A DNA stretch of 64,000 nucleotides. Source: Octopus vulgaris. Lineage: Eukaryota. The position numbers and the translations under genes were made by a program. Under the pieces are notes generated by a model. That model was not told the origin of the DNA, did not search any database, and saw nothing but the letters and a program-made list of their open reading frames with translations. This document shows, one piece after another, positions 682-63,193 of the stretch. The stretch's first letter is position 1, and every line of letters begins with the position of its first letter. Location: NCBI GenBank assembly GCA_951406725.2, contig OX597818.1:1302001-1366000 (forward strand). The letters run 5' to 3'.

Positions 682-1557
682 TAAATTATGTTCTCAGAGG
701 CACAAGTGAAACTAATTTCAATTGTGAACCTCAGTCCTTGTTTGAAAAGGAAATCCAGATTTCCTTTTCAAACAAGGACAAAGGTTTACAATTAAAACTA
801 GTTTCACTTGTGCCTCTGAGAACATAATTTATGTAATAACCTGCTCGGGGTGCGTACACAACTATATTGGACAAACGAGTATGACCTTGAGAAAGAGAAC
901 CACTCTACATAAAGAGCAAATCCGTTTCCCGCAATACAGGCAAATTCCTCTCAGTGAACATATGGAAAAATGTGCAGATAACATCAAACCAAATTTCACA
1001 GTCTTCCCCTTCTACCAGTGCAAAGACTCAATATCTCCACAAGAACGTTTAAATAATTTTTTTTGTATTGAAAATACAGAACACGTCTTAATATGCACGC
1101 ATAACCAACTTTTATCTTTTTTACGTACTTCAATTCACGATTACGTCACTGTACATAAATCCCCTCACTAAACAAGGTTTTCGAAGCTTGTTTTTGTCTG
1201 TACATATTTATTCCCCTCCCACTACCGAAAGCTGAACAGTTATCTCCCTTACCCACAACAATAAAAATAATAACGATAACCAATTACCACCCCTTATTTA
1301 TCTACTTGTAAAGTCATCCACTCGTGAATATCATCACACACAACATGGACAAAATTTCTTCTTAAGAAAAAATACATATTCAAATAAGTAAAACATAATA
1401 TCATGAAAAGCGATTGCGAAACCGGTCGAAATATTAAAAATTATATTAAAACTATGTAGCAAGTATATTAAATTATATTAAAACTATTTTCTTTTTTTAA
1501 ATTCTTATATACATTACAACTCACCATGTGGGGATAATCGAAATTCCTCCTTTCTGT
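682..1557 (+). mobile_element. 5'-truncated Penelope-like element (GIY-YIG endonuclease end plus 3' UTR) with inverted 5' end
   Basis: Frames give FTCASENIIYVITCSGC..YIGQTSMTLRKRTTLH..EH. 682-755 is an inverted copy of 758-831. It ends at (TA)n and is closely similar to 62280-63193. Confidence 0.85.
1396..1436 (+). ncRNA. Minimal hammerhead motif in Penelope 3' UTR (mutated core)
   Basis: taatatc-ATGAAAA-gc gatt gc-GAAA-ccgg-TC-gaaatatta, at the same position as the motif at 63052. Confidence 0.55.
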
Positions 1558-2346
1558 TATATATATATATATATATATATATATATATATATTATAAATG
1601 AGATAGGGTTGAAAATTCAACCCACCATGGGATAATATATATCCAATATACTGCTAGATAGGTACCAACAAAATTAATACATAGATGTTAGAAATTGTCA
1701 AGCAATCAGTTCATCTATTGTATTAAATGGGTAAGGGTAATAATATTACCGTAAATTAATACTACAAAATTAGAGAATGGAGAAACATACTTAAATCAAT
1801 AAAGCATCAACTATCCGATGATACTCAATCCATACTTTAATACAACATTACATAGGAGTAAAGGCAATATATAAAATGAAATGAGATATACAGTAATAGT
1901 AAAAGTTAAATATAAAAATATAAAAAAGTAAAATATAAAAACTTATACATCATAATGCTACACTTGTATAATATAATACATATTTGTACAAAAAGGAAGG
2001 TAACCAGAACAAAATAAAACAAAATATATAACAGTGTATATATAATATTAATAAGTACCGATATCATACATATTTAGCTAATAGTTTTTTATAAAAAAAG
2101 GGGCTAACACATATGGAGATGAAAAATAGTAATAATTAAATCCGTGGTACAGTTCATAAAGTTCTAAAGCTATAAAAGTTAATAAAAATTACTATTAATA
2201 ATAATAATAATAATAATAATAATAATAATAATAATAGTAATAATAATAAAAAATAATAAAAATAGATACAGTTAAGTTATCACCAAGTCCATCCTTCCAA
2301 GATCGAAATAACTATATATATATATATATATATATATATATATATA

Positions 2347-2720
2347 AGTAATGTTTGTTGCCACTTCAACATGGTTACTCTGTACGGAACGATGTTGCTG
2401 CTACTTTTTCACCACAGGAGAATCTTCTACAGGTTAACGACACAACCTGTGTCCGACATATTGCAAGCAGGGGAGCGAATTCCTACCATCTAGCGATTTG
2501 ACAGGACCAGTAGACCAGCTTGGTTGCAGAGTATTTGCCTTTCCTCAGTACTGAACACCTGCCCGCTACAGATAGCAGTCTTTCGCCCTAGCTCGCAATG
2601 TATAGAAAAGTAATTCAGTAAAGTAGCTTGTTCTATACAAGATGCAAGTAGTAATTATACTGAAAAGTAATGTTTGTTGCCACTAAAACATGACTGTTCC
2701 TTATGGAACGACGTGTTTGA
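2347..2720 (-). mobile_element. Retrozyme-like ~320-bp unit (1.2 copies) next to (TA)n
   Basis: aagtaatgtttgttgccact... recurs at 2347 and 2666, and the unit contains a minus-strand hammerhead. Confidence 0.55.
2508..2553 (-). ncRNA. Type I hammerhead motif (A13C variant)
   Basis: Minus strand reads cagta-CTGAGGA-aaggcaaatactct-GCAA-ccaagctgg-TC-tactg, with a perfect 5-bp helix I. Confidence 0.6.
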
Positions 2721-2824
2721 GTCTGTAGGTATACACTATAATAATTTATCTGTATGCTATATCTTAGTTGTTCTAAATTATCTATTATCTTTTGATATTC
2801 TATATCTATATACATACATATATA

Positions 2825-60430: not shown

Positions 60431-61845
60431 ATATTTTTTAAATGTCTTACTTTGAAAAATTGCATTCGGTGGGATTAGTAATATTTTTGGTAGAAATGAC
60501 TAATTGTCCCTCTTAGCGTTTGGCATGTATGTATTATGCCTTCTAGCATGTATGTATAATGCCCTCTATATATAAATTAATATGTTCAATAAGAAATAAT
60601 TATTTTCGAAATTTTTTCTCTTATGAGGTTTTTACGCTATCTACCTGACAATTTCTTGTTAAGTTTTCCTTATTAAGTAGTTGTCCTTAATTGCTAAATA
60701 TATAAATATATATATATATATATATATATATATATATATATATATATATATATATATATATATATATATATATATATATATATATATATATATATATACA
60801 AATTGAGATAGGGAGTGTAAATGCTAGTGAAGTACCCAACAAAGTTAATACATAAATGTTAATGATTGCGATGCAATCAATTCATTTACTGTATTATATG
60901 GGCAAAGGTAAAATGATTTACCACAAATTACTAATACTTGGATGTGCATATATGTATATGCGAATATTCATTCACGAGTGGATATAAATATAGGTTTTAT
61001 TTGTACGTATGAGTGCGCAGATATATATTTAAATATATATATATGTGTGTGCGAAAGTTCCCTGACACAGTATCGGAAAGTGTATTAATATTTATGCGTA
61101 TATGCGGATGTGCGTGTGAGTGTGTGTGTTAGTGTTAGAAACTACTGCCTGTACTGATATGTCTATAAGCCATGCGATGACAGACATGCACTCTGTAACT
61201 TATTGAATGTGTAGAGATGTGTCGGGGTGTGTTCATGTGTGTGTACATGTGTGTGTGAGTTTCTGTGTGGATGTGTGAGTTTAGGGTTAGATGTGGATGT
61301 GTATGTTTTGCTTGTGCGGTGTGGTGGAGGTCGGGCGGTTCTCAGTTGACCAACCGTGAGGAAGATAATGATGATTTTAAATTCAAATCCAATAGTGTAT
61401 TTATGTCATAAGGAAAATTATTAACTGGAACCCGGACTTACATATATACCGCTCTGGATCCTAATGTAAGTGTTATTAATAATATTATGAATGATAATAA
61501 TGATAACATTAATGGTATTGACAACGATAATGATGCTAACTTTAAGGACACTTTAGAAATTATTATGAAGTAATATAATGTACTATTGACCATGTAATTT
61601 GCATCTAAGTACTAATTTGTGTATGTTTATTATCACAATATTAAGTCGAAAAACTGAGACATTGAGTGTAGAACACATATATATGTTTACTAATTTATAT
61701 TATTTATTTATATCATTATGTAAATGTATATTTTTATATGTATAAGAGTGTGAGTATATGCACTCATATGTATATGTATATGTTGTATTGTGGGTATGCA
61801 CCCACACCCATGTGGGTATATATGTAGACTGAGTTATAATACATA

Positions 61846-61972
61846 ATCTCCGAAGAGGCCTTATGATATTTTTGTAAATGTCTCATTTATATCTATATAT
61901 TGACCAACCATAAAGGGCTAATATTGGTAAAATGAGACATACTTATCTACATGGCCGAAACAGCTGTAAGAT
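61846..61972 (+). ncRNA. Type I hammerhead with ~100-nt helix II (U4C variant)
   Basis: atct-CCGAAGA-ggcc..atgtctcattt..aaatgagacat..ggcc-GAAA-cagctg-TA-agat. Confidence 0.7.
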
Positions 61973-62279
61973 GTAATCTATACTTATATTTATATTTACT
62001 TATATTTATATTCTCTTTTATATATATTCTACTTATTATACAACATTACTCTTTTATGTACACTTTTCTATGTACATTCCCTTATGTACACTGATTTGTT
62101 CTGCTTTTTATATTTAACCCTACAGTCTCTTATGTGGTGGTTTAATAAAATATGTGATTGAGTATTATCTGGTAATTGATATTTGATTTAGATGTATTTC
62201 TCCATTTTCTTATCTTGTATATATATATATATATATATATATATATATATATATATATATATATATATATATATATATA

Positions 62280-63193
62280 CCATCAAATGCAAAAAACAAG
62301 ACAAATCTCTAAAGAGACTACTAACAAATGCGAAGCTTTACAAGACAACCACGAAACCAACGGTTGAAAAATGTGGACGCCCAAAGTGTGGAACCTGCCC
62401 CAACCTGCTTGAAGGCTCGGATTTCCTTTTCAAACAAGGACAGAGGTTCACAATTAAAACTAGTTTCACCTGTGCCTCTGAGAACCTGATTTATGTAATA
62501 ACCTGCTCGGGTTGCGGACACCAGTACATTGGTTGGACAAACGAGTATGACCTTGAGAAAGAGAACCACTCTACATAAGGAGCAAATCCGTTTCCCACAA
62601 TACATACAAATTCCTCTCAGGGAACATATAGAAAAATGTGCAGGTAACATCAAACCAAATTTCACAGTCTTCCCTTTCTACCAGTGCAAAGACGCAATCT
62701 CTCAACTAGAACGTTTAAATAAACTTTTTTCATTGAAAAATACAAAACACGTCTTAATATGCACGCATAACCAACTTTTATATTTTTACATATTTCAATT
62801 CACGATCACATTACAGTACATAAATCCCCTACTAAACAAGGTTTATGTTCTGTACACATATATAATCCCCACCCATTACCGAAAGCTGAACAGTTATCTC
62901 CCTTACCCACAACAATAACAATAATAACGACAACCAATTACCTCCCTTTATGTATTTACTTGTGAAGTCATTCACTCTTGAATTTCATCACACACGACAT
63001 AGACCAAATTTCTTCTTAAGAAAAAATATATATTCAAGTAAGTAAAACATAATATCATGAATAGCGATAGCGAAACCGGTCGATATATTAAAAATTATAT
63101 TAAAACTATGTAAGTGTGCGTATTTTCCTTTTTTAATTTCTTATATACATTACAACTCACCACGTGGGGATAATCGAAATTCTTCTTTTCTGT
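62280..63193 (+). mobile_element. 5'-truncated Penelope-like element between (TA)n tracts
   Basis: KCGRPKCGTC and NLIYVITCSGCGHQYIG motifs, same family as 682-1557. Confidence 0.9.
63052..63086 (+). ncRNA. Minimal hammerhead, A3-U8 variant
   Basis: atatc-ATGAATA-gc gata gc-GAAA-ccgg-TC-gatat. Confidence 0.7.

Follow-up and report, generated by a model that had tools for sequence, protein, structure and literature searches.

Head-to-head Penelope-like and hammerhead-bearing insertions facing (TA)n tracts in a 64-kb stretch of the Octopus vulgaris genome

The window analysed here, a 64-kb stretch of Octopus vulgaris DNA (assembly GCA_951406725.2, contig OX597818.1, positions 1,302,001 to 1,366,000), holds truncated Penelope-like elements (PLEs) and non-coding elements with predicted hammerhead ribozymes (HHRs), several of which lie head-to-head with their 3' ends toward (TA)n microsatellites. 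These structures are most probably (a probability of about 0.8) the ordinary insertion products of several endonuclease-bearing (EN+) PLE families of the Neptune/Nematis type, together with a tandem HHR element that is non-autonomous and relies on an enzyme of this kind. The anatomy and polarity of the insertions, their TA enrichment, their breakpoints and the tandem form of the non-coding element in four sequencing runs are direct observations. The counts given below cover the window, 18 related loci of metagenomic origin and these four runs.

The window is AT-rich animal DNA (37% GC) crowded with microsatellites, long and short interspersed elements (LINEs and SINEs) and one mariner fragment. 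The (TA)n repeat is common in it, with 31 runs of eight or more units.

Polarity of the insertions and their (TA)n tracts

All five inversions with a readable polarity (682/758, 30346/30629, 39910-40555, 58467-60699 and 60798-62217; Table 1) are head-to-head, an outcome that a coin toss would give once in 32. A first-pass annotation, made from the letters of the window, had described this geometry as a minus-sense copy on the left, a plus-sense copy on the right and (TA)n outside. At two loci the description is exact. The tandem array R at 58467-60699 has three HHRs on the minus strand followed by two on the plus strand, with (TA)n within 3 and 7 nt of its outer ends, (TA)29 at the left and (TA)46 at the right. 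The palindrome H2 at 39952-40558 (294-nt arms, 8 mismatches, 19-nt spacer) has one HHR variant per arm, and its right end adjoins (TA)n directly, while between its left arm and (TA)n there is a 43-nt extension, which fits the 30-40 bp tail published for PLEs (PMC8557442; PMC11167929). Elsewhere the description held in part. At 682-831 the arms are head-to-head, the left one being inverted GIY-YIG coding sequence, but this 74-nt arm has no (TA)n at its outer end. The pieces at 30346/30629 are also head-to-head, but they form no palindrome and there is no TA tract at the left. The palindrome at 41342-41572, annotated as 41347-41567, has its right end at (TA)n but only a few TA units at its left, and both an HHR and a coding match were sought in it and neither was found; hence it has no polarity marker that would bear out an outward-facing shape.

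The association with (TA)n was measured from the HHRs. A strict scan of the window found six motifs and a relaxed scan ten, against 0-1 per shuffled window (eight shuffles). The ten comprise five in R, one in each H2 arm, one in the 3' untranslated region (UTR) of each family A copy, and one at 61850-61968. The outermost of these scan-defined motifs, seven from five insertions, all have a (TA)8+ run 113-283 nt downstream, and none of them has one within 300 nt upstream. The background for such a run is 0.116, and circular shifts reached seven of seven in 0 of 20000 trials.

Other ends show the same tendency. The PLE 3' ends at 1557, 32462 and 63193 adjoin (TA)n, as had been claimed, and both family A copies end at the same base before TA. 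Polar 3' ends lie within 7 nt of (TA)8+ in 10 of 15 cases, a partly circular count as several ends were set by the TA tract itself, and none of eight control LINE/SINE 3' ends adjoins such a run (one SINE has (TA)7). Two pairs of neighbours, 1557/1592 and 60699/60798, sit tail-to-tail on one TA tract. In one related locus (L001) the order is an open reading frame (ORF), a minimal HHR, 119 nt and (TA)8, as in the window.

The tendency is not a rule, and several ends count against generalising it. No TA tract is present at the left ends 682 and 30346: the former has its outer end within the ORF, and no (TA)8+ run occurs to the left of it at any distance, and the latter abuts a LINE fragment and is 1581 nt from (TA)8+. 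Further, 32707 ends in (TATG)n, 40881 ends in (TG)n and the end at 31438 is separated from TA by 71 nt. In the copies at 31553 and 62280, TA lies on both flanks and there is no inverted arm. Among four further HHR-like motifs, recognised by eye or from their 3' half only, the TA test is positive in two. Hence the annotation's view that palindromes form routinely is not supported, given that the inverted arm is absent in two of the three PLE copies ending in (TA)n and that left (TA)n is absent in two of the four pairs it listed. A palindrome with the opposite geometry, with 49-nt arms and a central TA tract, lies at 7907-8061. The SINE 5' ends at 42560 and 58040 adjoin mixed TA/TG tracts, so microsatellite adjacency is partly non-PLE-specific. 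One related locus (L009, 2109-2800) has two PLEs, unlike in sequence and with one HHR each, placed tail-to-tail at a short AT-rich junction.

Table 1. Insertion-related features of the window (all HHRs are predicted; RT, reverse transcriptase; nt, nucleotides)
Feature	Position	Strand	Remarks
Inverted family A GIY-YIG coding copy, 74 nt	682..755	-	Outer end without (TA)n
Family A PLE, 5'-truncated	758..1557	+	GIY-YIG, 3' UTR, degenerate minimal HHR 1403-1427, end at (TA)17
Family D 3' end (D1)	1592..1931	-	Tail-to-tail with family A over one TA tract; unrearranged reference
Third-family GIY-YIG C-terminus and short 3' UTR	30346..30629	-	Beside LINE fragment, without (TA)n
Family C PLE RT fragment	30629..31438	+	Frameshifted; head-to-head with left neighbour piece
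Family B PLE, 5'-truncated	31553..32462	+	Open over CX4CX2C linker and GIY-YIG/CCHH
Family C start, repeated directly	32496..32707	+	Internally deleted, end at (TATG)n
H2 left arm with 43-nt tail	39910..40245	-	HHR variant (C at position 4) 40125-40157
H2 right arm	40265..40555	+	HHR variant 40353-40385, end at (TA)16
Palindrome, 109-nt arms	41342..41572	.	13-nt spacer (41451-41463) repeats arm sequence
R left arm, 2.7 tandem 480-bp units	58467..59781	-	Type I HHRs 58621, 59101, 59581
R right arm, 1.9 units	59781..60699	+	HHRs 59910 and 60390
Family D terminal segment, inverted left arm (D2)	60798..60937	-	3' end at (TA)n
D2 right arm	60938..62217	+	HHR 61850-61968; 62046-62217 matches D1; 3' end (TA)31
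Second family A copy	62280..63193	+	Frameshifted GIY-YIG, minimal HHR 63057-63081 (A3-U8 core)

Penelope-like coding pieces

When the open frame at 31553-32257 was used as a protein query, three proteins (P0001-P0003) were retrieved from 578 candidates, and two of the three carry RVT_1 and GIY-YIG (Pfam). The PLE pieces of the window are collinear with all three when mapped back, with a PLE-type RT upstream of a C-terminal GIY-YIG. Family A coding sequence occurs at 761-1063 and 62282-62758, with 87% identity between the two copies, and inverted at 752-684 (-). Family B coding sequence (31556-32143) is 74% identical to P0001 and 63% to family A. Family C is represented by frameshifted RT coding sequence at 30641-31438. 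The GIY-YIG C-terminus at 30601-30434 (-) is 34% identical to family B, the nearest plus-strand endonuclease; it may be of one family with the RT fragment at 30629 or of a different one. Families C and B are unlike in DNA over the same protein region, and 30629-32462 is hence a composite of two families and not, as annotated, a single copy ending at 32460. The CX4CX2C linker and the two Cys and two His (CCHH) of the endonuclease are invariant in the alignment (A1), which by the definitions of Craig et al. (2021; PMC8557442) points to Neptune or Nematis and excludes Penelope/Poseidon and Hydra. The pieces therefore appear to be of the EN+ Neptune/Nematis type, with at least three families, a class assignment read from these motifs.

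HHRs lie close to the PLE 3' ends, in family A by the scan and in family B (about 32311-32338) by eye and by a scan restricted to the motif's 3' half; all of these are degenerate predictions. The 3' half scan gave extra candidates at 32329, 30358 (-), 23782 and 102, amid about ten likely chance matches. The motif at 30346-30385 (-) has a U3-A8 core and no 3' strand of stem I. The minus-strand PLE piece at 30346 stops within about 2 nt of the predicted cleavage site of this motif, which hints at a self-cleaved RNA as the template, in one case noticed post hoc. The direct repeat of the family C start at 32496-32707 shares its starting base and 95% identity with 30629-31036, the second copy having an internal deletion. 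Another PLE ORF start at 40881-41160 (-), with about 50 codons matching P0002/P0003 (41033-40881), ends at (CA)24 and not at (TA)n.

The tandem array R

R consists of tandem units (unit length and copy numbers from Tandem Repeats Finder) that differ by 0-1 base, save that the right arm lacks about 36 nt close to the centre, and its two arms are more than 99% identical. It has no ORF of 120 amino acids, gave no match from the three PLE proteins or the 18 loci, and shows no homology to the pseudo-long terminal repeats (pLTRs) of PLEs, the comparison covering the PLE ends of the window and the same 18 loci. In its tandem and non-coding form R thus resembles a non-LTR retrozyme, with one predicted HHR per unit. 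H2 and the family D element are not tandem and have one HHR per arm, unlike retrozymes; they may be the truncated ends of other autonomous PLE families.

At least half of the words of the R unit are present in 20 of the 24 sequencing runs listed, which come from 8 studies and 3 organisms, with no RNA run among the listed holders. In the four runs followed up, the head-to-tail joint was found in every one, and the T/A letters that separate the units vary. In one contig the unit breaks off at 60696 and (TA)n follows, a junction that differs from that of the window. Some variants bear on the ribozyme fold: a G to A change at 60397 turns a G-U pair into A-U and keeps the HHR fold, and the loose end of an R subfamily has a changed free core position, a restored G-C pair and an altered loop 3. 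No variants are listed in the HHR core, an absence that is uninformative at about 26 variant places in 476 nt. In one run the depth dips over 60640-60699, which is not treated as a finding.

Origin of the inverted arms

In the account that we infer, from the pairing of enzyme and RNA to every priming step, the GIY-YIG endonuclease would nick AT-rich DNA, here mostly (TA)n, and the RT would copy an RNA starting about 110-280 nt past the HHR, so that the 3' ends would face the TA tract. The second junction could then form in three ways. The first would be plain 5' truncation, as at 31553 and 62280. In the second, a second cDNA would be primed by the other target strand and joined 5'-to-5', for which 60798-62217 is the best case and 39910-40555 and 58467-60699 are probable ones. 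In the third, the cDNA would fold back on itself, as at 682-831 and perhaps 41342-41572. The second and third ways would both give head-to-head arms.

The case for the second way comes from the family D inversion D2, which can be compared with the unrearranged copy D1. The plus arm aligns with D1 from 1931 to 1765 (125 of 182 columns) and the minus arm from 1765 to 1652 (92 of 117 columns, with nothing gained by extension), and neither alignment score was reached in 300 shuffles. The arms therefore meet at reference base 1765 and represent adjacent, non-duplicated parts of the template, and each has its 3' end at (TA)n. The part at 60938-61830 belongs only putatively to the element. Past the break the template runs on with a TA-like stretch; a target duplication would be unreadable inside (TA)n, and the central joint lacks a reference. 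A related locus from another organism (L015) has a similar structure: 876-1011, compared with L001 1626-1747, is an inverted segment, after which the adjoining segment stands in direct orientation with a 13-nt overlap, the inverted arm has (TA)6 at its 3' end (left), and two tandem HHR units precede it. As its arms are non-duplicated, fold-back could not yield D2, and twin priming could. This suggests that D2 is a twin-priming inversion with adjacent arms and outward 3' ends, on two cases in all with L015. Twin priming was proposed for L1 (Ostertag and Kazazian, 2001, as summarised in PMC10760644), and the definition used here follows that summary in part. More broadly, PLEs may settle many insertions in this manner, with both nicked strands priming at different RNA sites, TA-like ones included, and the cDNAs joined 5'-to-5'; this wider proposal is tentative, and somewhat short of an even chance.

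Self-priming of the cDNA, as taken for rotifer Penelope elements, could be thought to account for all head-to-head forms with no need of a second target-primed cDNA. The centres at 756 and 59781 have offsets of only 0-2 nt, the spacer at 41451-41463 repeats arm sequence, and junction palindromes were read as self-priming in Adineta vaga (PMC3846280). For example, the two arms of 682-831 start within 2 nt of each other at a point in the ORF, and the DNA at the outer end of the short arm is not TA; since independent truncations rarely coincide, fold-back is the likely source here, as that paper proposes. However, fold-back duplicates sequence, whereas the arms of 60798-62217 do not overlap and those of L015 overlap by only 13 nt. 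The right arm of R ends 4 nt before the unit boundary on the circle, a natural end, while the left arm ends elsewhere, at the internal TA-rich tract of the unit. Fold-back as the general explanation is therefore rather unlikely. The both-strand priming imagined by the first-pass annotation thus gains at least one locus that it had not listed (60798-62217) and probably loses 682-831.

The annotation had gone further, with one (TA)n-specific PLE enzyme moving all the non-coding HHR RNAs in trans and with palindromes arising from the self-complementarity of (TA)n. What stands of this is PLE-type machinery, a TA bias of HHR-bearing 3' ends and a non-coding HHR element with the marks of PLE insertion. 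The outward TA geometry is common to R, H2 and D, retrozymes have been proposed to use PLE enzymes (10.64898/2026.07.22.740005), and the left end of R and the right end of D2 fall at short TA-like template stretches, as annealing of a TA primer would give. A single machinery is nevertheless distinctly improbable. At least three coding families occur within 64 kb; R, H2 and D share only short AT-rich matches with the 3' UTRs of A or B and nothing with the 18 loci; pLTR dependence is family-specific (PMC3846280); and the left ends at 682 and 30346 lack TA. Self-complementarity as a cause is likewise not supported. Head-to-head pairs are usual in Penelope/Poseidon elements with ordinary target duplications of 8-10 bp (PMC3846280), and in vitro a Poseidon protein cuts both strands at ATT sites and extends both (PMC11167929).

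Alternatively, inversions and TA tracts alike could postdate the insertions, through recombination or template switching at TA tracts or slippage from AT-rich tails, or the perfect palindromes could be assembly chimeras. The abundance of (TA)n, the near identity of the R arms and the fact that the R centre is known from the assembly alone would suit this. Against it, the flanks past the TA tracts are unrelated between sides, the R arms are unequal with a central deletion, the two family A copies stop at one base, the LINE/SINE control ends are negative and the TA bias is strictly downstream. Such an origin is highly improbable.

Insertion by several PLE families with the tandem HHR element in their train accommodates these data best, and the following points weigh against it. 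No intact full-length PLE was found within the window. An internal inverted repeat was found in none of the 18 related loci, a result weak either way as these are probably collapsed short-read contigs, and eight of the 18 have a 3' UTR HHR with (TA)5+ within 400 nt in only two of the eight. The strand-change joint of R is not listed in the four runs, in which assembled contigs would mask single-copy junctions, and (TA)n follows only 1 of the 21 loose ends of R listed among 109. The R arms share their starting base with a 2-nt overlap, and as this base is the unit boundary, dual priming and fold-back are inseparable at R. The alignments of D2 with D1 are in AT-rich DNA. Finally, an Rfam search over 58460-60710 with E up to 10 detected no hammerhead family.

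Other features of the window

Over the whole window, no hammerhead family occurs among the Rfam matches listed (150 of 159). The listed matches are microRNA or snoRNA models under gathering scores, and they were rejected as hairpin and microsatellite artefacts. The HHR at 61850-61968 has a 100-nt stem II enclosing an 11-bp inner helix, and its fold is no better than that of shuffled sequences (z -1.47, 14/200). A degenerate HHR-like motif with a U3-A8 core and a poor stem I lies at 23764-23795, with a TA tract 72 nt further on. At 90-117, 16 nt are identical to the 3' half of the 61850 HHR, the core and stem II being apparently deleted, and the nearest TA tract is more than 1.4 kb away.

Among the other repeats, a LINE at 13246-17195 has an open endonuclease-RT frame of 1038 amino acids and an upstream ORF of 312 amino acids with weak Myb-like and CCCH zinc-finger matches, and a decayed relative of it occupies 25316-27410 (-). 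A search of viral contigs gave no relatives among 378 candidate stretches.

Relation to known systems

The geometry itself is already described: head-to-head pairs, tails, (TA)n bias, mobilisation in trans and retrozymes as PLE derivatives have all been published. Inverted 5'-truncated copies at the 5' end, tails of 30-40 bp and a (TA)n bias were reported for EN+ PLEs (Craig et al., 2021; PMC8557442), which places in print the inverted 5' segments and the microsatellite preference that the annotation gave as known; the same description of pLTRs and inversions is given in PMC8969392. The window pieces resemble the EN+ Neptune/Nematis elements of PMC8557442 in the C-terminal GIY-YIG with CCHH, the CX2-5CxxC linker, the 5' truncation and the HHR near the 3' end. 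Unlike those elements, the window has neither a full-length copy nor a pLTR-ORF-pLTR tandem. In Adineta vaga, head-to-head is the most frequent Penelope arrangement, pLTR-flanked sequences are mobilised in trans and pLTR dependence differs between families (Arkhipova et al., 2013; PMC3846280). These elements likewise have junction palindromes and a 31-bp tail on one arm, but they are of the Penelope/Poseidon type with 8-10 bp target duplications and not TA tracts, and their self-priming account misfits the non-duplicating inversion seen here.

The Anolis Poseidon protein cuts and extends both strands in vitro and starts inside the RNA, and the PLE tail was traced to two RT start sites (PMC11167929); in the available text of that study, unlike here, no inverted products are reported. 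L1 twin priming (PMC10760644) is alike in its second priming at the target and its joining of cDNAs by microhomology, and unlike in the class of element.

R can be compared with the metazoan non-LTR retrozymes (Cervera and de la Pena, 2020, PMC7229834; Li et al., 10.64898/2026.07.22.740005), which are also tandem units of a few hundred bp with one type I HHR each and no coding match. The latter authors regard retrozymes as non-autonomous PLE derivatives and propose that they depend on PLEs. An inverted array between TA tracts is not described in the available text of these two sources. The minimal HHRs of metazoan PLEs have a short palindromic helix III and U3-A8 covariation, and dual HHRs occur on opposite strands, 100-700 bp apart (Cervera and de la Pena, 2014; PMC4209133). 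The window motifs share the palindromic helix III, the extra base before helix II and the U3-A8 core; the predicted A3-U8 core, the C at position 4 and the 100-nt helix II were not met in the available part of that work.

Significance

The geometry adds little to what is published, and the mechanism could matter. The origin of the tandem and inverted structures of PLEs was called an open question (PMC8557442), and the integration of animal retrozymes is described as unresolved (10.64898/2026.07.22.740005). In the open-access literature searched, we found no publication in which twin priming is invoked for PLEs or an inverted array of retrozymes is described. Both the footprint of twin priming and the inverted array R are modest leads, with one or two loci behind them. 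An inversion that duplicates no sequence and whose breakpoints coincide, as in the window and in L015, distinguishes priming on two strands from self-priming; the inverted R array, which is very young, links the way retrozymes integrate to junctions of the PLE style. If true, twin priming would explain the tails of PLEs, their inverted pLTRs and their non-duplicating inversions by a single mechanism, and the inverted 480-bp array with TA tracts on either side would be a direct trace, in the genome, of retrozyme integration by a PLE enzyme.

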